This document shows positions 3,546 to 61,164 of a stretch of DNA of 64,000 bases, in pieces (position 1 is the first letter of the stretch; every line of letters starts with the position of its first letter). The position numbers were made by a program, and so were the translations under genes. A model generated the notes under the pieces. The model was not told where the DNA came from, did no database searches, and worked only from the letters and a program-made list of their open reading frames with translations. This stretch comes from Amoebidium appalachense (Eukaryota; Protista; Ichthyosporea), in the NCBI GenBank assembly GCA_963693365.1, contig CAVNZM010000013.1, positions 7,206,713-7,270,712 of the forward strand, given 5' to 3'.

Positions 3546-4457
3546 CTAGACTCTCCTTCTCTTTCTGGATTTCTCACTCTGCACGGTGAACACCCTGATC
3601 TTGCCACCATAACGTCCTATAGTCGCTATGGCCCCTCCCGGCGCCACCTTCACTAAATCAAGACACCTCCACCACAACCCATCACCCAGCCTTAACTCCA
3701 TTGACTCTTTCACTTCTACCGTGTTAGGTGCAGAGAACGTTATCGGATACAACCGTAGGCCCAGGTCCGTTGTGGTTGCAAATATATCCTCACCACACAT
3801 GCCTGAAAAGGTGCCCTCATATGCCAATCTAGTTGGGGGCACAAGCACTGCGCCATGTTCATCCCACGACTCAAAGATCACTGCGCTGCTATCGTCAGTG
3901 AGCGTACACAGTTTCATACCAATAAAACAGCTCGTAACTCTCTGGTCTCTGACTTTGACCCTATAAATCTCTCTGCCAGTAGCCAGGTCGCACACAACAG
4001 ACCCGTCTCCGATGGACAACATGAACACATCACGGCCGTGAGCCGGAAGCGGAAATCCGTACACCAACTCACCGGTCACCTGCTCCCACAGCATCACACC
4101 TGCTTCGATGTTCCAAGCAGACAAATAATGATCTGGCGCACTTGCAACGAGGGTGTCCCCGTTAGCAACGAAACATTTAAAGTAGGATGAACGCTGAAAT
4201 TCATATTGAAAAATGATAGAACCATCCTGGGAGCTGTAAACAATTGCCGTTTTTCCTCCGTCATGCTTCATGTATACGCCTAGAATCACTTGGGCTGTAT
4301 CGGCATACCCGTGCATGACCATGGGAGGCATCATCATACCGTGCTCTGGGTCTCTCCCAGGCCACGTGTAAATTTTCTGCCCCGCCGAATATTCTTCATC
4401 ATCATTTTTCGCGACGATAGTGGTCACGCAAACGCAAACAAACGGGGGGTGCGGCAT
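3546..4457 (-). CDS. Uninterrupted 303-aa ORF, probable WD40/PQQ-like beta-propeller protein with a C-terminal basic NLS
   Basis: Non-repetitive ORF with blade-like segments (LSAWNIEAGVMLWE, VVCDLATGREIYRV, GGKIRVFTV), ending KSRKRRRV. The start is uncertain: a polypyrimidine tract plus TAGTAG acceptor-like site sits just upstream (~4469-4490). Confidence 0.6.
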   Translation of the reverse strand: MPHPPFVCVCVTTIVAKNDDEEYSAGQKIYTWPGRDPEHGMMMPPMVMHGYADTAQVILGVYMKHDGGKTAIVYSSQDGSIIFQYEFQRSSYFKCFVANGDTLVASAPDHYLSAWNIEAGVMLWEQVTGELVYGFPLPAHGRDVFMLSIGDGSVVCDLATGREIYRVKVRDQRVTSCFIGMKLCTLTDDSSAVIFESWDEHGAVLVPPTRLAYEGTFSGMCGEDIFATTTDLGLRLYPITFSAPNTVEVKESMELRLGDGLWWRCLDLVKVAPGGAIATIGRYGGKIRVFTVQSEKSRKRRRV

Positions 4458-6155
4458 GCCAGGAGCTACTACTAGAGAGAAGGGGGGGGTATGATTGGAG
4501 GGGGGGGTGTTCAGCTAACCTTATATGGATAAAGCAAAGTTACAAGGATTCAAGCCATTGGTTGGGCAAGACCCCTTTTGCCGAATATGGATAACAGATC
4601 ATACACTGCTGTAGGCGGCGGTCAGGAATTGGCGCGCTCTTTACTGGTCACAACCACCAGTCCGGGAAGGCCATGAGCAGCATTGCCGAGCACACTGGAA
4701 TACGGGAATGTTTGCGGTAACGTAGTCGCACTAGGGGGGCAGGGGGCCAGGCCCCAAGTGTTTAAAATGAAGCCAGGCTGCCCTAAGGGCACAACACAGC
4801 GCCCTGGGCATAAAACAGGCGGAGCTAGGGAGGGAGCTGGGCGCAAAAAAAAAGATGCTGCATTTGTTCAGCCTTTAGCGAACTTTGCAGGTTTTGGGAC
4901 GGCAAACAAAGCTGTTTTGCAGGAACTAAACGTAAACGTACAACCCGAACAGCCCCCTCTATCTAAGGCCGCCGACATAAGGGCCCGTGTAGTTGAGGCA
5001 GGTAGCGTCCATTCGTTACCAAGAGAAATGGATCGGGCCCCTGCTCCACACCCACCAGACATACAGGTGCAACCCGACGAGGAACCTTTGCTAAATGCAG
5101 CAGCAGATGCGTACCGGGTAGACGAGGATGAAGGGGAGGAAGAGGGAGAAGATAATACGGACGGGGATGACGGTGGAGAGGAGTTTTCTGACGCGGCGGG
5201 CGAAACAATCAAGTCGCACCTGCACACAGTGAAAGAGAGTCTCAAAGATGAGAAGACGCCTGTGGGGTGGCATCTTCCACCTCCCATTATAGGCTTTAAA
5301 TTTGGGGGCGATCCAGCGCCTTTCTACAAACCCAGATGTTTTGCCTGGCTTCCGGAAAGGTTGTCTCCCGGTTTCATGGTGCCGTGCCCCTTCGATGATC
5401 ACTACGTGGACCCCCACAACCACCCCAACCCACACCGTACTTCTCGCAATGGGTTCATGAGCAACCCCGTAGGACGGCGTGTTATCGACTTTGACAGCTG
5501 CTACTACATTATCACGGCCCGGTACTTTTGTGACACATGCAAAAAAAACTTTGCCGGCACAAACCCCCAGACAATTAAACGCCTTCCACTCTTCATGCGT
5601 GATCAGTTTCCGGCCTACCTTAGCCACCGCAGTGGGCTCGACCTAAAGGTGGTAACATTGTTGCGTGCACTGGCAGACAAAGGTGTGGGCCCAAACGCCT
5701 TTGCCACCCTCCTCTCGGAGCTCCACAAGCAGCGATACGACGAGCAGCGGCTCCTGTATTACTCGAGGGCGCTGCATTGGACCAAGTATGAACTCAAAAA
5801 GCGTAACGATTTCCGCCCCCACGACCAGCGCCTGACAGAACTTCCCCCAGAGGAGCAGGCGGCTAAGTTCTCGGCGTTTGGTGACAAAAAATGGTTACGC
5901 TGGACATGTGCCTTCAGGCAAGTGTGCACTGCATTTTGGGTGTGTAAATGGTCCCCATTGTTTTGTATGCACGTGCTTGGGCATTTTTTGGGTTGGCTTG
6001 GTAGGGTTTTGTTTTATTATTTTTTATTTTTTTTTAGGGGGGGGGGGACTTGGAAATGGGTTTTGGAAGTGTGGTCAATAAGTTTCTATTATGGTGGTGG
6101 TGGATGTGTGGTGGTGGATGTGCGCCTGTGAGTGTGCGTGTACTTGTGGGTCCGT

Positions 6156-6206
<51 letters not shown>

Positions 6207-6286
6207 GGGGGGGGGAGGGGGACATGGTGATGGATTAGGTGGTGGTGGTGGCAATCAGTCATGGTGGTGGTGGTGGTGGTGGTGGT

Positions 6287-6319
<33 letters not shown>

Positions 6320-6468
6320 GGGCAGAGGGATCATCAGAGGGGTGAAAGCATAACGGTCCATGTACCAGTGAGTGTGCTTGGGAAATCGTGGAGAACTGTT
6401 ATGCCTGAAATTAGATGGTGGGTGTGCGCATGTGTGTCTGTGTGTGTTGGGGGAAAGGAGGTGGAGAG

Positions 6469-6503
<35 letters not shown>

Positions 6504-7425
6504 GGGCACATGGTGGTAGACTGGATCTTGGTGGCGGTACTTAATGGTTATTATAGTAGTGGCAGGAGGGTGTGGGGGGAAGGGCAAACGGACGTGCAGG
6601 GGACAAACTGCAGATGGGGCACAAAGGGGAAAGAAGGTGAAAGTTGGTGCAATGACTTGGAGGGTTTGCGCGCGCCGGGAGGCGGGGGGAGGGGGGGGGG
6701 GGGGGAGGGGGGGGGGGGGGCAAACGGCCGGAGATGGGTGTGTAGCGTTTTTGAGATGGGAAAAGCCATACAGACTTACGAAAATACAGAGAGGTGAGAT
6801 GAACACGAGGGACTAGAGGGAATGGGGGGGGATGGTCCTGATGGGAGGGTGGTGGAGTTCTAACAGTACTTGGGGTTCAGGCAAATACCTGAGTGCCGTG
6901 TATACTGAGTTCAGCGACCGCACGGCAAAGTACCAGAGCCTGGACACGCAGCTCAAGCCCGTAAACAACGTGCTCAAGGCCGACCACACCTTCCAAATTG
7001 GGAAGCTCACCGGCATCAATGGGGAGCCTCTGTACCGAGGCCTATGGACTTGTGTAAACGAGCTTGGCGGTGTGTGGTCCCTCCTCTTCTCCCCCCTCCC
7101 CCCACTCTCCCCCAGGCCCCCTCTCCCCCCTCCCCCCCCCCCACACACGCCCACCCCCCCCCCCCCACACACACACACACACACACGCCCCCCCCCTCCC
7201 CCCCCCCCCCCCCCCCCCCCCCTCCCCCCTCTAGGGCCTTTAAATCTCTTAGGCTCCACATTTAATGAGGTGGCACACTGTGAGTAGAGGTTTGTAGTAT
7301 GTGGGTTTTGGGGACAATTCTTGCCCTGTCGAGCAAAAACTAGGAAGCTCCAGATATGTGTGTATGTGTTTTTGCTGGGTAGAGATTGGGGTGGGCTGGG
7401 GTGGAGCTTTCTTTTGGCGGGGAAT

Positions 7426-7490
<65 letters not shown>

Positions 7491-7664
7491 AGCTTCTGCC
7501 AAGCAGAATGGGAGTAGGGGCCAGTGATTGCAAGGGATGCAGGGGGGGGGGGGGGGGGGGGGGGGGAGAGACACCACCGTCGGGGTTGAAGGTAGAGAGG
7601 GCAAGAGGCCCGGGGTGGGGTGGGGGGGGGGGGGGGGGGGACAGTAGGTGCCATATGGAGGGCT

Positions 7665-7970
7665 GTCCCATGGTTTGGGGGGAGGGGGAGTGGGGAAGGA
7701 TCGTGGGCACATGGGTTTGGGGGGAAGGCAGAGAGGGGGAAAGGATTGTGATCACAAGGGTTTAGGGGGAGGAAGGGGGAAGGATTGTAGGTACATGGGT
7801 TTAGGGGGGAGGGGGGGGGGAAGATTTTGGGGGAAAGGGAGGCCTGGGGAAAGTATGTGGGCACATGGGTTTGGGGGGAAGGAGGGGGAAGGGTTTTGGG
7901 GGAGAGGGAGGGGAAAGTATGTGGGCACATGGGTTTGGGGGGAGGGAGGGGGAAAGGATTGTGTGGGCAC
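7665..7970 (+). repeat. G-rich degenerate minisatellite in transposase intron 2
   Basis: About 6-7 variants of GGGGAA(G/A)G(A/T)(T/A)TGTGGGCACATGGGTTTGGGGGGA in tandem. Confidence 0.75.
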
Positions 7971-8329
7971 TGAAGTCTCGTGAAGGGCCATGTGGTAAGG
8001 GAAGCTAGAACATGCATGGCTGCTCGGAGATGCCCTCTCACACAGTGCGGCACCCCAGAGATCCGGGCGCAGGTATTTACACGGGACTGCAGCCACCAGG
8101 AGATTGAGCCCGTGATCCAGCGCATCTCTGCCACCACGGCGGCGCTCAACAGCAAGGGCCCGGCCTTCTTCTACACAGATCGGTGCTGCCAAGACCGGGC
8201 GTTTGTTGAGCGCATGTTTCCAACCCTAGCCCGGCCAAAATGCCCCGTCCGTCTGAACGAGGCTGCGCTGGTAAGCGTGACGGACGGTCTGCCTGGGCTG
8301 GAGCTGCCGGCCAACTACCCTAAGCCGGT

Positions 8330-8870
8330 GTACACCGACTGCCAGGGGGCGGTGGTGGCTACAGCGGCCATTCGTGCCGACCTGGAGGGGCAGCAGCACC
8401 GCGTGGTGGGGCTGGACTGCGAGTGGGTCTATCGGGTGGGCCAGGCGCGGTCCAAGGTTTGCACGCTGCAGATTGCCACCGCACGGGCCGTGTACATCTT
8501 CCACTTGGCACGCATGGGCCCCAACCACAGCCCGCCCGCGCGGCTGGTGGACGAGCTGATTGCGCTGCTTAGGGACCCCAGCATCATCAAGGTGGGCAAG
8601 CAGATCGGCACGGACTCGGCCCACCTCAACAAGGACTACGGCACCCCTGTGGCCAGCTATCTGGAGCTGGGCCGGTTCTGCTATGCCCGTGCAGCTATCA
8701 CCTCTGCGGCCCGGGGCTTGGCCGACATCACTGCCCAGGTCATAGGCAAGAAGCTGCCCAAGCCGGCACTTGTTCGATGCTCCAACTGGCACGAGCCGCT
8801 ATCAGAGGTGCAGGCCACCTACGCTGCCCTTGATGCATATGCGTCCCTGCAGGTCTACTCGGCCGTGGTC
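8330..8870 (+). other. DnaQ-like DEDDy 3'-5' exonuclease domain inside the transposase (exon 3)
   Basis: ExoI VVGLDCEW (D 8415, E 8421), LQIAT, ExoII KVGKQIGTD (D 8613), SNW..PLS..Q..YAALDAY ExoIII (Y 8820, D 8832). All four acidic ligands and the Tyr are present. Confidence 0.92.
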
Positions 8871-9101
8871 GATAGGCCAAACCTGTCAGGTGTGTATCCC
8901 ACCTGCTTTTTGCCCCAGTGCTTATGTGCTTATGCCAGATATAGAAAGATTTTGGGCCCCCCAGAGGAGAGGGGAGGGGGAGGGAGGGGGGGGGGGGGGG
9001 GGGGGGGGGTGGCTGACCACATGGGCCAGTGTTCCAGTTGTGTTATGCTGGGTGTCGGGTGGCTATCAAAGGAGGGGGTGATTGGTGGTGGTGGTGGTGG
9101 T

Positions 9102-9134
<33 letters not shown>

Positions 9135-10727
9135 CTATAGCACTGTTAACACGTGCAAGTGCCACACAAGCTGGGCACTGGGAGAGGGGGGGGGGGGGAG
9201 GGAGAAGGGGGGGGGGGGGGGGGGAAGGGGGTTGCTAAGGAATATGCATTTGATTTTTGTGGAGCGAAGAGAAAAACGTTGGTGCTGTGGCTTTTTGGCT
9301 GAGTTTTTTGCTTCCCTCTATGACATGCAGCGCGGCTTCATGCAAAGGCACTCGGTGAAGGGGTTGAGATTGTGCCCCGGCGGGGCCCACATGCTGCAGC
9401 AGCCACCGGGGTGGTGCTGGCTGTGCAGCCGGAGCGCTGGGGGGGCATGAAGGTGGGCAAGAAGCATGCAGTGGTGCGGGTGGATCAGGTGCTGTCGCCG
9501 GCCATGCAGGTGCCCTTTGGCCCCGACAAGGGCAAGACCCTGGGAGAGCTGGGCCCGCCGCCCTTTGAGCTGATGGTGCACCTGCAGTGGCTACGGCCCA
9601 TTCAGCCCCCACCGGACCCAGGTGCCGAGGTGCCGGTGGTCCCTGACCCAGCCCCTCCCCCTGCCGAGCAGCAGCAACCCCTTGCCGGCCCACAGGCACC
9701 CCCCCAGGACCCCCAGGCAGCCCCGGGGGCCTTGAGGCAGCCCCAGGGGGACCCGAGGCAGCTCCCAGAGAGGGCATGTTGGGCCAGGCACCGCCTGGGG
9801 AGGTGGTGTGGCAGACTGTGCTGAATGACGCCTTCCACTCCATTGCAAACACGGCGGACGGCACGTACAAGTCACACCCCCGCAGGGCTGAGTACGCACG
9901 CGCACTCAGCGAGGCAATATTTGTGTGGAATGAAGAGGATTACGGACATGTGAAGGTGCCCCCCCCCTCCCCCCCCCCCCAAAATAAAAAATAAAAAATA
10001 AAAATAAAAAAAACGGCAACAACAACATGCGTGACTGACGCGCACACACACATACACTCGTTAGCACACACTCACCATTCCACCCACAACCATGCACACC
10101 TTCGACAAAACTTCTGAGGGAAGAGAGAGAGCCTGAGCCTCAGAGAGAGGGGGGGCAAGGGGGGGGGGGGGGGGGGGGGGGGGGGGGAGGGGGGAGGAGA
10201 GTGGGGGTTATTCATATGCCTAGAGAGAAATAATGTAGGGTTGTGGGGGGAAAGAGCCACATGCATTTTTTACTTGTGTTGGGGGAGAAGATGGGGGGGG
10301 TGGAGGGGAGGGGTCCTACAATAACGGCAGGTATCAAAGTCTACCAAACCCAAATTGCAGTGTGCGTAGTAAATTAATATTGGCATCCTGCCTCACAGGG
10401 GGTGCTGGAGCAGAAGGGCATCGACATTGAAACCGAGCTCAAGGGCGGCGACCTGAGCTACTTCATGGAGCGCATCCGGCGGGTTATTCCCGACCCATAC
10501 ACGCTGGTCTCGCGGCTGGTGGAGTTCAAAAACACCTACAAGGATGTGCCGCCCGGACCGGATGGCAAGCCTCTGTTCAAGAAGGATGGCTTTGAAAGAC
10601 TCGAGGCAACATCCCCCCCCCCCCCCCCCCTCCCCCTGCAGGCGCCCAACAACTCCACCACCACAGAAAAGATTCTTCGCTTATTTGTCATCCTTGGTTC
10701 ATCTGCACACACACGCACACCCTAGCC

Positions 10728-10762
<35 letters not shown>

Positions 10763-10777
10763 ACATACACACACACA

Positions 10778-10833
<56 letters not shown>

Positions 10834-10905
10834 CCCGCACGGCCCTTGCTGCCTAGCCAGTTGTTTTTTGCCTTTCCCTGCTCGTTTTTTTCCTTAGCAA
10901 CCCCA

Positions 10906-10952
<47 letters not shown>

Positions 10953-13066
10953 ACACATACACACACACTACCACCACCACCACCCACCCATCTCTCTGAT
11001 GTTTGCTTGTGCCCCCACAGTCGCTGCTCGAACACGCCCAAAATGGCTGTCTGTCGGACCCCCCCGGCCTGCCCCTCTACTACGAGACCACTGCCGACGC
11101 AGATGGGCTCATGCGCTACCGCTGCATCCGGGGCACCAACGAGGTGGAGGGGGCAGTGCACAACCCCCTGGCCACCCACTTTGGGGCCACACGCATGTCG
11201 CTGCGCCTGCTGGACGCCACCATGTCCAATAGGCGCCACCGCCACAACCTGCGTGCACACTACCGCAACCGCCTGGGCCAGGCATCGGGGCCCCCCACTA
11301 CAGCCCCTGGATTGTTGACGACATGGAGGCACTGGCGCTGATGCTGTACGGCCATCACCTCGACCCCCAGTGGGTACCCGTAGGCTGCTACAAGCTACCG
11401 GAGGAGTACTTCAACTTTGCCCCGCTCTCCTGTGTGGCCAATGCCCCGGCGCAGGAGCCAGTTGCGGTGCCCGCACCCCCACCTCCGTCTGATAACATCG
11501 AGCCTGCAGCCAATGGCGTGATGGGCGGGCCAGAGGACTGTGAGGTCGAGGAGGGTGACGGTGCTGCCATGGGGGGGGGCAACCAGGTGGCGCGTGGTGC
11601 ACCACAGCCGGACCCTGCACTGAGGGGCGACTACAAGTTCCTGGCGCAGAAGCAACATGTGGCCATCCCCTTCCTTCCGGTGCTTACCCCTCAGGAGCGC
11701 AAGCTATTCAGCACGCTGCTCCTGGGCACCTACAAGGCACATGCAAAGCCCAACGGCCAGCTGTTCGAGGCTTTGGCCCAAGACTTCAACAAGGCTGCCT
11801 CTGTGGCTGGGGGAATCTACATGAAGGATGCGGCCTACATCAAGAAGCATTTCGACAAGTGGAAGACCTGGCAGACGGCACATGCACAGCGCTCCACACA
11901 CGAGGGCCTGGCAGATCACCGCAAGCGTATGCGCGAGGAGAGGGCAGACGCTGTGCCAGCAACCATACGGCCTGCCCCCTTGCCACCCCTCCCTGTTCCA
12001 GACGGTGTCGATGCAGGGGCGCAGCGTGAGCGGCCCTTGCCCATGCTAGTGGGCAAAAAGCATCGCAACATTGGCCCTGAGGGGCCCCTGCAGATGGATT
12101 TGCCGGTGCCCCCTCCTATGCAGCCACCCCAGAGAGCCCCCAAGACCTGCAAGACGTGTGGCCGCCAGGGCAAGGGCTGCCTCGGCTCCAATCGGGCCAA
12201 GAGCTGCCCACGTTGGGTTGCAGCCAATCAGGATGCCATGCCACCAGCACCCGCGCTTGACATGCAGCAGGGCCATGTGCCGCACATGCCCCCTGCACCC
12301 CATCCAGGCCCGCACCACCCACATGGCTGGCCCCCACCGTGGGGCATCATGCCGCCTCAGCCCGGCCCTGCCTTCCCCATGCCTGGGCTACTGCCGCAGC
12401 ACGGTCCCCATCCTTACTTGGGCCATGTGGGCCAGCCCTCGGCTGGTGGGCAGTTCCCACCCCCTTCTCGTGCATCTGCTGTGCTGGGCCTGGCGTTGCC
12501 ACCTGCTGGAGAGACGCAGCTGCAATGGCACGATCGAAAGCAAAGTAATCGTGGCCGCAAGTCTGCAGGCAGCCAATCAGGATCTCAGAGTAGTCAGAGT
12601 AGCCAAACTAGTGTCTAATATTGGAATGTACACCAATGTAACGGATCTCATATGTGTTGTAGTGCTTCAAGTTATACCTGTTCTTCGTACAGTCATGTTA
12701 GGGGGGGGGGGGGAGGGGGGGGGGGGGGGGGGGGGGGGGGCTAGCTTTCATTCCGAAGTTTACTGTAAAGAATTAAAATTTAGAATCTGAGTAATAGTAC
12801 AGAGCCTTTGCACTTTTCTCTGTTTGTTAGGAATTCTTTGTGATCGAGAGTATGGTGTGTTAGACTATTGGTGTTAATGTGTCCTGGAAGGTGTATAATG
12901 TCTGCTGGCCGTAGTCAGTATCTATTTTTAGGTATATAGTATATTTTTAAATGTTGGCCGCTGGCCAATAAATAGCAAATAATAAACACACGATAAAGTC
13001 AACAGCGTGCCAAAAAACTAATCCCCAGCGAGCGCACCCAGTGATGTGTGTGTGTGTGTGTGTGTC

Positions 13067-15418: not shown

Positions 15419-15931
15419 TCAAAAATTGCCCGCTCCTGATATGGTACCCGGGCCAAGCAGCAAACGCTCGGCACCAATTTGCAAAAAGGTGGCAGTGGGA
15501 TCAAATTTGTACTTCATCGTTACGCTTCGCATGTCGCCAGCAAAAAAATCCAACACCGATGGTGTATCAGTCTCAACCCAGGGCAAACCGTAAAACAGAA
15601 ACTCGTCACGCAGCCGATCTTTTGTGCTTTCGTCGGCCGGGAACAGGGGGCGGCCACCGGGTGTGCGCAGGTAGTCGAGCCCATAGTCGAACAGGAGGGG
15701 CGAGCGGTCGACAAACACCGTGCCGTCAGGGCGGGTCTGGATGGTTTGGCGGCCGCTGAACCAGGCGGCCAGCATAGACCCGGGCACGGCACACAGCGTG
15801 CGGCGGGTGGTGTGGAAGTGGCGGCCGCCCACATCCAGCACTATGACGTCACTGGCCTGCACCCGTAGTAATAGGGGGTGTTTATCCAGCCCGGTAAGGG
15901 CTGCGCATCCATAGTGAGTCCGTGCCATCAT
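15419..15931 (-). CDS. BTB/POZ domain protein (KCTD/K-channel tetramerisation type); C-terminus possibly extends to ~15292 via a homopolymer frameshift
   Basis: VIVLDVGGRHFHTTRRTL...SMLAAWFSG...DGTVFVDRSPLLFDYGLDYLR...LRDEFLFYGL is a textbook T1-type BTB. Removing one base from the A5 run at 15421-25 would continue into ...FEFSLPGPAGENLRFLDLKEVKSCK... Confidence 0.85.
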   Translation of the reverse strand: MMARTHYGCAALTGLDKHPLLLRVQASDVIVLDVGGRHFHTTRRTLCAVPGSMLAAWFSGRQTIQTRPDGTVFVDRSPLLFDYGLDYLRTPGGRPLFPADESTKDRLRDEFLFYGLPWVETDTPSVLDFFAGDMRSVTMKYKFDPTATFLQIGAERLLLGPGTISGAGNF

Positions 15932-16500
15932 GATCCCGCCAGAATGTGTGATTTGCGCAAAAATGGCTCAGTGACGCAGGGCTTATGGTAATCTGGCCAT
16001 TTGGCGGGTCACGGAAGTCAGCCGCTTCCTGCACAAGGCCTCCTACAATGACAGAGTAGGACTCTGTAGGAGGCCTGTCCGCACCCGTGCACTTCCCTGC
16101 CCAGTTCCCCAGCGGCCTCCCCCCCGCCCCCCCCCCCGGGGCGAGGAGGGGGGCGGGGGGCGCAGGGAGGCCACGGGCGGCGGGGGAGTGCGGCCGCCCA
16201 CTCCAGCACTATGACGTCACTGGCCTGCACCCGTAGTAATAGGGGGTGATCCAGCCGTAAGGGCGCGCATCCATAGTGAGTCCGTGCCATCATGATCCCG
16301 CCGAATGTGTGATTTGCGCAAAAATGGCTCAGTGACGCAGGGCTATGGTAATCTGGCCTATTTGGCGGGTCACGGAAGTCAGCCTGCTTCCTGCACAAGG
16401 CCTCCTACAATGACAGAGTAGGACTCTGTAGGAGGCCTTGTTCCTGCACCCGTGCACTTCCCTGCCCAGTTCCCCTAGCGGCCTCCTCCCCCCGCCCCCT
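15818..16500. repeat. ~310-bp direct duplication of the BTB 5' end and promoter (15818-16130 and 16187-16500)
   Basis: The two copies are nearly identical and differ almost only by small deletions. The coding part of the second copy is frameshifted. Confidence 0.9.
16396..16440. mobile_element. 45-bp micro-MITE-like insertion with 14-bp perfect TIRs and an 8-bp TSD
   Basis: TTCCTGCA (16388-95) | CAAGGCCTCCTACA - 17 nt - TGTAGGAGGCCTTG | TTCCTGCA (16441-48). A degraded copy lies at ~16034-16077. Confidence 0.65.
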
Positions 16501-17973: not shown

Positions 17974-18447
17974 CTACATGCACATCTTCTCGACCTGGTT
18001 GTACTTCAGCCCAGTCTCACACTGGCAGTCGGTGGGGAGGATGGGGCGCACACCCTCCTTCTCGTAGGCACGGATGGTCCAGCAGGGGAAACGATAGTCG
18101 GGGTCATTCAGGTCAGGCTTCTCGGTGCCATCAAGGGGAATGCAGTTGGTGGGGTTGTTCACATCGTCAAACTTAAAGCCATAGTTGCACTTGCAGTCCT
18201 CGAGCTTGGTGGGGTAGGTGGCCGTCTCGTAGGCGTTAAAATCGGCGCAGGGGAAGCGGGGGGCCTGCTGGCACATCCAGTCGTCGTTCACCTCAACCCA
18301 GTTGAGGCCCCAGTTGCAGGTGCATGACTTGCGGGGGTCCGTGGAGACAACCCCATTCTCCCAAGCGTTCCGCTCCCAGCACTGCTTCGTGGCGGGGGCA
18401 GCGGCGGCCACGGAAAGAACGGCAACGAGAGGAGCAAACAGCTTCAT
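17974..18447 (-). CDS. Small secreted cysteine-rich protein (157 aa): signal peptide plus three ~40-aa Cys4 repeats
   Basis: MKLFAPLVAVLSVAAAAP signal-like N-terminus, strong GC3 codon bias, 12 Cys arranged as three C-x3-[NR]A[WY]E...CxCxxG[LF]x[WFY]...C units, intronless. Confidence 0.85.
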   Translation of the reverse strand: MKLFAPLVAVLSVAAAAPATKQCWERNAWENGVVSTDPRKSCTCNWGLNWVEVNDDWMCQQAPRFPCADFNAYETATYPTKLEDCKCNYGFKFDDVNNPTNCIPLDGTEKPDLNDPDYRFPCWTIRAYEKEGVRPILPTDCQCETGLKYNQVEKMCM

Positions 18448-19597
18448 GGTGAGTGAACGTATTGAGTAGAGAAACAGAGCAGGTTGATGATTGTGATTGG
18501 GGGGCTAAGAGTGCGTGTTTTTATACCCTTTGGTGCTTGTCTAGGGGGAGACCGATGCTTCACACACGGAACACCACAGCTTCCACGACGTTCTACGTGC
18601 TTCAGAAAGGCCACAGTGATGGGGTAACTGAAGCTAGTGTACGTACGTTTTAGATTTTGCGCATTCCGTGATATCTCGACAACTGGCATAATGATAAAAT
18701 TAACCATGTAGCTCATGTAGCATGCATACGCAATTACGCATACCAGTTGTATACCAGTCTGCAGCGCTGGCCGGGAGCATGCTACATAAATGACGGCCAA
18801 TGCGACACGGTATAATATTGCCTATATGTCATCTACAGTATATAATATCCAAGCTTTCTCGTGCTTGTTGACAGACACGAGCAGCTGCAGGGCTCACGTG
18901 CTGCGGCAGGCCGTGGCGTAGCTGAGTGACGTACGCACCAGGCTGGCCATGTGCGCATGCAACGACCTGGATGTGGCCTGAGGTGTGACCTGATGTGTGC
19001 TTGAAATCATTATGCATGACAAGTAATTGTTATTGTGCATTTGACTCCGAGCGTTGTTAAAGGTGAATGCTAGTACAGAAAAGAGTAACAAAGATCCGTT
19101 ATAAAGAGTCACCCCCCTTCGTATCTAAGATGCCATAACCCAGGAAACGTGGGGGCATGCATATGCGGGCAAATTGTACCCTTGAACGTATGTAGATCAT
19201 GCCGACCAGAAAAATCTATTGACTCGACTTTGCTAAATTTTCCCGCTCTTTTCCGAAAATAAATATGTGATTGGTAGATCTAAAATACCCAACCAGTGCC
19301 AACCAGTAAGATTTATAGTGGATCGCCGAGACGACGCCGACCGTGAGACCGACGGCGTGCACAGTGACGGTGCGGGCACTGCCCGGCAGCCGTGCCCAGC
19401 CCTGGTACCGGTCAGTGGTTGCCTTTAAACGAGCTCCAATAAAAGTGCATTATCGTCGTAGTGTTGCTATAAAACTCTAATTACATTGCATTTAGCAAGA
19501 CATAATAATAATGATAATAGTAATAATAGTAATAATAATAATAATAGTAATAAGCCGCCTGTGACTTTGTGATTAGACCAGCCCAAGGTCCAAGGAC

Positions 19598-59840: not shown

Positions 59841-61164
59841 TCATTCGCTCATACCAGCCTCCCATATCTGCCTAACAGCCATATACGTCCCAATTACTCC
59901 ACCCACCACACCCAAACCCACAGAAACTACAGCTAAAAACCACCTAAAGCCCAATGCTACCACACCACCATTATCTTTCATGTTCGGTTTACGCACGACC
60001 AGATCAATCATCGGTGGGAGAATGAGCGATAGACTTGTACTCCCAAACGAACCTATGAGGGAGATAATAAGTCCTAGGTGGGGCACACACACAGCTATGA
60101 GAAATGTCACCAACACCAAGCATGAACGTAAAAAGATCTGACGGGATATTTCAGTGTAGGGTATCCTAAATACCTCAGACATAATTTCTACCGCTGGTGC
60201 AAATTGCAGCGGGTATGTTAACGTTACCGCGCAACACAGCAGAACATTAATTGTGGACACATACCACGAACTAGCACCCAAATGTGCAACTATGCTCCCC
60301 CTCCTTCATCACTCCATATGCAAGATATCCTACTTGGGCCAACAACATAAATACCCCGGTGACGAAAGTTAGCGCCACCCTGAGGGTAGGCACAAACAAA
60401 TCCCGGTTTTCACCCATGGACTTCTCGATTGGCAGCACCACACCAATGCCCTCATATGAGAAAACGGCTGCACCAAAGAAAATCGGGAAAGTGTCCCATT
60501 TCATTTCAGGAATTTCGGCTACCCCATCACTCCCAATGTCCACCAGTGCTTTGATGACGCAAAAAGAAATCCCTGTTGCCATGCAAATGTTTGCAACGAT
60601 TGAAGCCGGTGTCATGTTTTTCACGTGTCTTATGTAGGAAAGAAGCAGGACGACAGGTAGCATTATTAGCATCCAAACTCTTTTCGCAAACGATGGGTAA
60701 AGGGCGTTTGCATTTTCGGCGACAAAGTTGAAAAATATGCAGCATATCCCGAGTTGTGTGATAACCACGAACGTTGACACGGATGCCCCACCCCATTTCC
60801 CAAAGACATGTTCGGCACAACGCTGATACGAGTCCGCAATATACCCCGTTTCCCTCAATGCCGTGTTGGTTTTCACGAGTAATTCCATGTTATAAGTGGA
60901 GAGAAAAGCAACGAGTAGCGTGGAGATGGGGGCAAGGATGCTCCCGGCCTGTCCGTATGCGTAGGGTAGAGAGAGACAGCCGGGCCCAATGTTAGCACGT
61001 AAGAGGTGTATGAACACGTGTACTATGCCTGTTTGTGTGTGTTTCGTAGTCACTATAATTGGGTCGATTTGGGTGTGTGATGGTGTGCACTGAGGGGAGC
61101 CCGCGTGTAATTGGTTGTGGTGGATGCCTCCGGCGGGTGGTGATAGAAGTGGCTGTGTTTCCAT
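59841..61164 (-). CDS. Amino-acid transporter, AAAP/SLC36 (PAT)/AVT3-like, intronless, with one apparent 1-nt frameshift at C5 60297-60301
   Basis: HLLRANIGPGCLSLPYAY, TQLGICCIFFNFVAEN, FFGAAVFSYEGIGVVLPIEKSM, LTYPLQFAP, VPHLGLIISLIGS. Removing one base gives GYLAYGVMKEGSIVAHLGASSW and fuses the 297-aa and 146-aa ORFs into ~440 aa. Confidence 0.9.

Follow-up and report, generated by a model that had tools for sequence, protein, structure and literature searches.

A spliced, multicopy element of the ichthyosporean Amoebidium appalachense encodes a predicted DDE transposase with an inserted exonuclease and most likely belongs to the Dada transposons

Introduction

In three families of Dada transposons, Dada-1_LB, Dada-2_LB and Dada-1_ES, Kojima and Jurka described in 2013 a DEDDy exonuclease located between the second catalytic Asp and the DxxH motif of the transposase (PMC3706591). 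The hosts are Laccaria bicolor and Ectocarpus siliculosus; the exonuclease was reported for those families only, and a role in processing cleaved 3′ ends was proposed for it (PMC3706591). Many Dada families transpose without an exonuclease, and the families bearing one have no target in their names. Dada elements normally contain introns, and their zinc fingers are of the CCCC type at the N-terminus and of the CCHC type at the C-terminus (PMC3706591).

KolobokD is a further C/DxxH-group transposon encoding a DnaQ-like exonuclease, which was proposed to degrade DNA intermediates (PMC9587614). ISCth4, an IS256-family element with a structurally characterized transposase (TnpA, PDB 6xg8), has 31-bp terminal inverted repeats (TIRs), 8-bp target site duplications (TSDs) and only 21 residues between the second Asp and the CxxH motif (D241 to C262; PMC7780238). 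MuDR/IS256 elements have TIRs and a duplication of 8–10 bp.

Here we analyzed a 64-kb stretch of the A. appalachense genome (the window, to which all positions refer). An earlier note had proposed that it encodes a DDE transposase with an exonuclease inside its catalytic core, representing a poorly characterised transposon type with novelty mainly in its mechanism. The claim of an undescribed type does not hold, because the insertion architecture was published in 2013, and neither does that of a novel mechanism, 3′-end processing having already been proposed for Dada (PMC3706591). We conclude that the locus is a spliced multicopy element, very probably an autonomous exonuclease-bearing member of Dada, whose exonuclease would trim 3′ DNA ends arising in transposition.

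Results

Six exons between positions 4767 and 12618, on the forward strand like all features below, encode a protein of 1533 aa, close to the ~1530 aa of the earlier note. The product matches P0006, a full-length transcript ORF from Amoebidium (EukProt label). Exon 1 (4767–5917) encodes a basic AT-hook-like motif (4818–4853), an acidic linker and a DUF6729 region, exon 2 (6881–7069) holds the first catalytic Asp, D418 (LKADHTF, 6982), and exon 3 (8059–8889) contains in a single open frame the second catalytic Asp, D487 (FYTDRCC, 8178), and the whole exonuclease. A small beta domain (~9348–9596), a Pro-rich linker and the DxxH motif (9827–9838) are encoded by exon 4 (9331–9955) and the helical part after DxxH by exon 5 (10399–10605). 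Exon 6 (11021–12618) provides an SDP motif, the RGTNxxE motif with E1044 (11147), a helical domain (~11626–11946), a Cys4 knuckle (12148–12207) and a disordered Pro-rich tail. All features named in the earlier note were thus located where it had placed them, the AT-hook as a resemblance only; the product gave no Pfam match to an AT-hook.

Two of the five introns are GC-AG and three GT-AG introns. The exons are joined in spliced public contigs, one of which connects exons 1–4. Spliced joints are contained in runs X11 and X14, guessed to be RNA. Three homopolymer frameshifts occur in the window, an extra A at 5886 (exon 1), a missing G at 9724 (exon 4) and a missing C at 11290 (exon 6). These are likely assembly errors, since the homopolymer sites are in frame in all four runs compared; this reading stems from collapsed contigs, and the one copy in the window could still be privately broken.

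The exonuclease (8385–8864) is a predicted 3′-5′ enzyme of the WRN/EXD2 type. It matches the Pfam family DNA_pol_A_exo1 (PF01612) with an E value of 5.9e-14, above the curated cut-off, and PDB entry 2e6l with 5e-16. Its predicted fold aligns with the WRN exonuclease over 184 residues (Z 27.9, rmsd 1.7), the next match having a Z of 20.6. The exonuclease domains of WRN and EXD2 share the DEDDy residues and the fold at 28–32% identity, but unlike in WRN, the domain lies inside a transposase and there is no helicase. The WRN exonuclease acts on DNA. The five DEDDy residues D566, E568, D632, Y701 and D705 (8415, 8421, 8613, 8820 and 8832) are conserved, consistent with the intact-looking enzyme that had been noticed after the second Asp, and Y701 is Tyr in 138 of the 140 homologs covering the site.

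Among 269 fetched proteins scanned, 160 possess the D1D2, DxxH and E regions. The exonuclease is present in 158 of these, with the same domain order in all, accompanied by the small beta domain in 123 of the 158. Intronless homolog loci have the same domain order as the Amoebidium protein. In the core-only tree, the two proteins without the exonuclease sit next to one that has it; they may have lost the domain secondarily, or it may be missing through faulty gene models.

These comparisons bear on the substrate. The exonuclease of a Dada transposase might instead work in trans or have RNA as its substrate, trimming host small RNAs, for instance, or clearing transposition by-products, rather than processing the transposition ends. 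RNA-trimming enzymes are indeed among the close structural relatives (EXD2, Nibbler/MUT-7, RNase D and RRP6), many Dada families transpose without the domain (PMC3706591), and 2 of the 160 homologs lack it. We regard such an activity as fairly unlikely, however: WRN is the best match (Z 27.9 versus 20.6), the position inside the catalytic core is fixed in 158/158 homologs, which suggests action near the active site, and the exonuclease-less pair may reflect loss or artefact.

Conservation of single residues was followed in 149 homologs by phmmer mapping, each count giving the homologs that cover the site. D418 is conserved in 126/128, D487 in 139/141, D890 and H893 of the DxxH motif in 108/110 and 111/111, and E1044 in 120/122. 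The other Glu of RGTNEVEG, E1042, is variable, so that the choice of E1044 as the catalytic residue in the earlier note was justified. Both catalytic sets, DDE/DxxH and DEDDy, are kept in 65 of the 76 fully covered homologs. Judged by its retention across the 149 homologs examined, the architecture is not a chance arrangement.

The structure model of the Amoebidium protein aligned with ISCth4, the transposase closest to it in structure, at Z 13.8 and rmsd 3.9 (250 aligned residues, range 7–723), across the insert. For the model of an exonuclease-less homolog, ISCth4 was the best match (312 residues aligned at Z 10.0 and rmsd 5.1; E 3e-4 in Foldseek), with integrases, Hermes, Transib and the P element below it; with the full query model, Foldseek returned exonucleases only, among the matches listed. 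Based on these models, D418, D487, E1044 and the His of DxxH are predicted to make an IS256/Mutator-like RNase H site. The conserved core motifs and the match to ISCth4 support the DDE transposase of the C/DxxH group that had been proposed. The predicted RNase H fold, C/DxxH and a helical insertion are common to this protein, ISCth4 and the MuDR, hAT and P transposases. In contrast to the 21 residues in ISCth4 (PMC7780238), D487 and DxxH are 403 aa apart. Membership in MuDR/IS256 was rejected for the lack of TIRs at the candidate ends. KolobokD was rejected as well: its exonuclease is a TREX/ERI1-like DEDDh enzyme whereas ours is DEDDy and WRN-like, with Y701 being Tyr in 138/140 homologs, and Kolobok elements make TTAA duplications (PMC9587614), while TTAA is absent at the candidate ends.

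DUF6729 (5226–5792; Pfam E 2.7e-17 to 1.7e-18, above the curated cut-off) has the putative zinc ligands C207 (5385), H212, C255 (5529) and C258, of which C207 is conserved in 53/63, C255 in 100/100 and C258 in 91/100 homologs. In the resulting pattern, C-x4-H...CxxC, the putative second ligand His212 has the x4 spacing of C389–C394 in Dada-U6_DR, and DUF6729 is likely the N-terminal zinc finger of Dada. The C-terminal knuckle, C-x2-C-x6-C-x8-C, is placed like the CCHC finger of Dada with Cys for His; within the last 400 aa of the 149 homologs, the Cys4 pattern was found in 33 and CCHC in 4. Weak Myb/SANT-like fold matches of the C-terminal helical domain were seen in a homolog. Pfam includes models for KDZ/Zisupton/Plavaka transposase domains. 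Scanning P0006 at E ≤ 0.01 yielded DUF6729 and DNA_pol_A_exo1 alone and no KDZ or Plavaka transposase domain. Our literature search found no paper naming DUF6729.

The candidate element spans 8.5 kb (4461–13004), delimited by a step in depth at ~4440–4470, by the ends of multicopy contigs at 13002–13005 and by a duplication search. Its length and five introns are within the Dada range of 4.7–11 kb with an intron-containing gene. A tentative 7-bp TSD consists of GCATGCC on the left (4454–4460), after which the candidate 5′ end starts with AGG like those of Dada-U6, and of GCGTGCC on the right (13005–13011), with one mismatch and starting with GCG like the Dada-U6/U1 duplications. It was chosen by a post-hoc test that 487 of 20,000 random places also pass (~2%). 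The candidate depends on this stricter test, since the looser one, any near-matching 7-mer shared by the two end zones, was passed in 965 of 5000 random trials (~19%). One contig of run X14 has 4444–4460 in common but a different upstream flank; the left end could be near 4444 instead of 4461. No exact inverted match of at least 8 nt exists between 4440–4760 and 12740–13010, the candidate ends. TIRs are likewise lacking in Dada-U6, -U1, -tRNA and -5S (PMC3706591, PMC8869645).

The element is multicopy with near-identical copies. Contig depth was ~70–100 compared to 4.8 in the flank in run X1 and ~1500–2900 compared to 43 in run X4, a rough sign of copy number, and 8 variant positions were listed in the element contigs. 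The left flank is at single-copy depth, and no second copy lies within the 64-kb window. The copy is not inserted in a tRNA or snRNA gene: searches of the window, the element ends and the reconstructed empty site of this one copy gave neither tRNA nor Rfam matches, Rfam at E ≤ 10 gave chance-level matches only around both ends, and the fold of the empty site was no more stable than shuffled sequences (41/500 as stable). It resides in single-copy DNA, unlike the target-specific Dada elements, which insert into small-RNA genes (PMC3706591, PMC8869645), and membership in these groups (U6, U1, tRNA, 5S) was rejected on this ground. Among 80 related metagenome loci, mostly short contigs with undefined ends, no tRNA was detected in the 27 scanned and no Rfam match in the 20 scanned, and the exact right-end pattern had no match in metagenome contigs.

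Discussion

With Dada-1_LB, Dada-2_LB and Dada-1_ES the element shares the DDE triad, DxxH, the inserted DEDDy exonuclease, introns and the size range (PMC3706591). Similarity to the published sequences is indirect, through two proteins: the homolog P0057 (E 1.7e-68 to the Amoebidium protein), which at the exonuclease start is identical to Dada-1_LB in 31 of 45 residues, counted by eye from the published figure, and the L. bicolor protein P0260, aligned over 817 columns (E 1e-37). The D1–D2 spacing is 69 aa, compared to 68 in Dada-U6_DR. The element differs from the Laccaria and Ectocarpus Dada by its ichthyosporean host, ~24–29% identity to the fungal proteins, His for Cys at one N-terminal zinc position and the Cys4 C-terminal knuckle, and in being intact, spliced and multicopy. 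Our literature search found no report of Dada for Amoebidium. Word-indexed protein searches, which are nearly blind, returned only three WRN helicases besides the Amoebidium protein itself, and viral contigs gave two exonuclease-only matches and nothing else.

That the element belongs to a separate, unnamed superfamily merely resembling Dada appears very unlikely. In the core-only tree (60 homologs, one trimmed region) it is a long, weakly placed branch, the zinc motifs deviate, no small-RNA target was found for this copy, and the 120 matches listed in the core search included no animal Dada. Yet those who defined Dada included the Laccaria and Ectocarpus elements with the same insert (PMC3706591), and the Amoebidium protein is homologous to Laccaria-type proteins over all core motifs. 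As it has no supported close relative in the core-only tree, we claim no donor or transfer. We give still less credence to domestication as a single-copy host gene or to a copy that is dead, to which the transcription and splicing with five introns and the three frameshifts might point: depth is ~15- to 65-fold above the flank with few variants, a different flank occurs in another contig, the frameshifts lie in homopolymers that are in frame in 4/4 runs, the catalytic residues are all intact but lost in domesticated dDada, and introns are normal for Dada elements (PMC3706591). A mis-joined exonuclease from a separate gene or nested element, for which no supporting point was found, is refuted by the exon shared with D487, the contig over exons 1–4, the full-length ORF P0006 and the same order in intronless homolog loci; the exonuclease thus lies within the transposase transcript, as the earlier note had it.

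For an exonuclease-bearing Dada element, the exonuclease and the small beta domain are predicted to loop out between D487 and DxxH. Binding to the target and to the asymmetric ends would fall to the zinc domain (DUF6729), the basic domain and the C-terminal helical domain, and a duplication of 6–7 bp would remain after strand transfer. Because strand transfer needs the transposon's own 3′-OH, the exonuclease would more likely trim 3′ ends of the flank or target, which would fit reports of Dada duplications that are imperfect or have been replaced. Our literature search found no test of the exonuclease in Dada transposition.

A broader reading, speculative and unlikely as it stands, is a widespread exonuclease-Dada lineage of microbial eukaryotes that avoids small-RNA genes, recognises a short, G-rich sequence whose end reads GC(A/G)TGCC and resects target or flank 3′ ends at integration with its WRN-like exonuclease. 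Its range would comprise fungi, chytrids, aphelids, Plasmodiophora and now an ichthyosporean. If true, such resection would be an integration chemistry that no DDE transposase has yet been shown to use.

The architecture was published in 2013 and would come as no surprise to a transposon specialist; the value of this locus is modest and practical. Exonuclease-bearing Dada appears extended to unicellular relatives of animals, and DUF6729, unannotated in Pfam, is now tied to exonuclease-bearing Dada-type transposases. The host protist can be cultured, and its intact, spliced, multicopy element offers a place to examine the 3′-end-processing proposal of 2013.

Catalytic residues and their conservation

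The candidate Dada DNA transposon (candidate extent 4461-13004) encodes a DDE transposase with an embedded DEDDy exonuclease. Its first catalytic Asp, D418, lies at 6982, the second, D487, at 8178, the DxxH motif (D890xxH893) at 9827-9838 and the catalytic Glu, E1044, at 11147, with the exonuclease residues D566, E568, D632, Y701 and D705 at 8415-8834; all these catalytic codons were found where the earlier note had placed them. A HMMER search of 1.84 billion representatives yielded 4826 proteins at E ≤ 0.001. Conservation was assessed in the best 149 of these matches, with the query's own cluster left out; since the ranking query included the exonuclease, this set is biased toward exonuclease-bearing proteins. 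Among the homologs covering the respective site, D418 was Asp in 126/128, D487 was Asp in 139/141, H893 was His in 111/111 and E1044 was Glu in 120/122, and D566, E568, D632, Y701 and D705 were kept in 120/132, 124/132, 133/142, 138/140 and 134/141, respectively. All ten sites were covered in 76 homologs, 65 of which had both catalytic sets intact; seven retained the DDE set only, three the exonuclease only and one neither. This joint conservation shows that selection acts on exonuclease and transposase together. Named homologs (20 of the 149 were looked up) came from mushrooms, Mucoromycota, a chytrid, an aphelid and Plasmodiophora. Additional protease domains occur in some homologs: OTU in P0019, from the chytrid, and Ulp1 (Peptidase_C48) in P0026.

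Predicted fold

The AlphaFold2 model of isoform P0001, comprising the residues from D418 onward, had a mean pLDDT of 74.7, with the core mostly > 90. It matched the mouse WRN exonuclease (Z 27.9, rmsd 1.7, 184 residues) and the ISCth4 transposase (Z 13.8, rmsd 3.9, 250 residues), the latter match spanning the insert, from model residue 7 to 723. The insert was absent from 2 of 160 homologs; these two proteins group with an exonuclease-bearing protein in the tree and may represent losses or gene-model errors. For the model of the insert-less homolog P0130, ISCth4 was the top match, followed by integrases, Hermes, Transib and the P element. ISCth4, with D175, D241, C262/H265 and E348, belongs to the IS256 family (PMC7780238); the matches of both models therefore predict a C/DxxH-type RNase H transposase core into which exonuclease and beta domain are inserted. 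The RNase H fold with the exonuclease as an insertion, postulated from the sequence alone, thus agrees with predicted models that match ISCth4 across the insert and WRN within it.

Gene structure and transcript

The gene (4767-12618) consists of six exons separated by introns rich in poly-G/C. Introns 2 (7070-8058), 3 (8890-9330) and 4 (9956-10398) are GT-AG, and introns 1 (5918-6880) and 5 (10606-11020) are GC-AG, giving GC donors in two of the five, at 5918 and 10606. A protein search with exon 3 identified a 100% identical EukProt protein labelled Amoebidium parasiticum. It belongs to a cluster of 18, and the 15 members listed are all isoforms of a single transcript component. The full-length isoform P0006 (1533 aa) covers all six exons when mapped. 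In the public run X14, which we guess to be RNA, exons 1-4 were joined in one spliced contig of 2821 nt and exons 4-6 in another of 2113 nt; none of the public contigs aligned to the region contained the whole six-exon span. The spliced X14 contigs together with P0006 place the exonuclease exon in the same transcript as the transposase, as initially proposed.

The window sequence has frameshifts at 5886, 9724 and 11290. Because each lies inside a homopolymer and is in frame in all four runs, they are likely assembly errors, although a defect confined to this copy could be hidden in collapsed contigs. With a start inside intron 1, isoform P0001 is missing 380 aa at its N-terminus, and P0009 has a Pro-rich linker longer by 5 residues; these differences may reflect intron retention or copy variants. 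Two low-complexity spots, 9186-9240 and 9654-9703, showed very high contig depth and many loose ends, likely from unrelated repeats mapping there.

Copies, ends and surroundings of the element

In run X1, contig depth was 4.8 in the left flank and about 70-100 in the element; in run X4 the corresponding values were 43-46 and about 1500-2900. Only 8 variant positions were listed in the aligned contigs. Depth rise and few variants point to many near-identical copies, contig depth not being a copy number. By the same measure the left flank is single-copy DNA. On the right side multicopy contigs end at 13002-13005, and on the left an X4 single-copy contig ends at 4468. One X14 contig matches from 4444 on with a different upstream flank; hence, either the element actually begins near 4444 or insertions have a 17-nt target motif in common. 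No terminal inverted repeats were found at the candidate ends. The top duplication candidate, GCATGCC (4454-4460) / GCGTGCC (13005-13011), yields an 8.5-kb element beginning with AGG, as do Dada-U6 elements (PMC3706591); in a post hoc chance test of this candidate, 487 of 20000 random places passed as well. One transcript-like X14 contig has a 22-nt insertion at 4503 in which a 17-nt stretch from near the left end is duplicated, indicating sub-terminal variation among copies. Also near this end, two copies of ATATGGATAA lie at 4523 and 4585.

An open frame with weak beta-propeller matches (PQQ_2, E 1e-4, below the cut-off) adjoins the element on the left (3546-4457, minus strand). Its first ATG falls within the left candidate duplication, so the element may occupy the beginning of a host gene or one of its introns. 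A BTB/POZ frame (15419-15931; BTB_2, E 1e-13) with an adjoining, apparently degraded second copy (16018-16404), both on the minus strand, might go together with the beta-propeller frame on the element's other side. Further minus-strand frames encode 176 aa (17974-18504), like a secreted cysteine-rich repeat protein with a signal-like start, and 297 aa (60271-61164), the latter presumably resembling an amino-acid transporter exon.

Relation to Dada and proposed mechanism

In Laccaria bicolor and Ectocarpus, Dada transposases have a DEDDy DnaQ-like exonuclease inserted between their second D and DxxH (PMC3706591). The earlier note had suggested a poorly characterised transposon type: the transposase with an exonuclease in its core is real and well supported, but its novelty does not hold, this kind of architecture being already described there. 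The D1-D2 spacing is 69 aa here and 68 aa in Dada-U6_DR, a Laccaria bicolor protein aligned to the query with E 1e-37, and homolog P0057 has 31 of the first 45 residues in common with the Dada-1_LB exonuclease (by eye, from published figure text). Three points speak against a perfect fit: Cys and His are exchanged in the zinc motifs relative to Dada; no small-RNA target was found for this copy, with neither a tRNA nor an Rfam family detected at the insertion site; and the 120 matches listed, out of 144, included no Dada from an animal. KolobokD differs in its DEDDh nuclease (PMC9587614). Dada has been reported from four fungal phyla (PMC5751038). Transposable elements make up about half of the Amoebidium genome according to PMC11244446, the accessible part of which contains no mention of Dada. 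In the literature covered, outside which lie most subscription papers and Repbase Reports, we found no report of Dada in Amoebidium or other ichthyosporea, no paper naming DUF6729 and none on DEDDy in Dada transposases beyond PMC3706591.

In the proposed mechanism, the zinc/DUF6729, basic and helical domains would bind the asymmetric element ends; the helical domain gave only weak Myb/SANT-like fold matches (Z about 4.5-5.5). The DDE/DxxH site is predicted to cut and join DNA, and integration would, tentatively, leave a 6-7 bp duplication. Kojima and Jurka (2013) proposed that the exonuclease likely processes cleaved 3′ ends (PMC3706591). The main rival is that it works on RNA or in trans instead; we lean slightly towards an exonuclease that would trim flank or target DNA at its 3′ ends, close to the active site.
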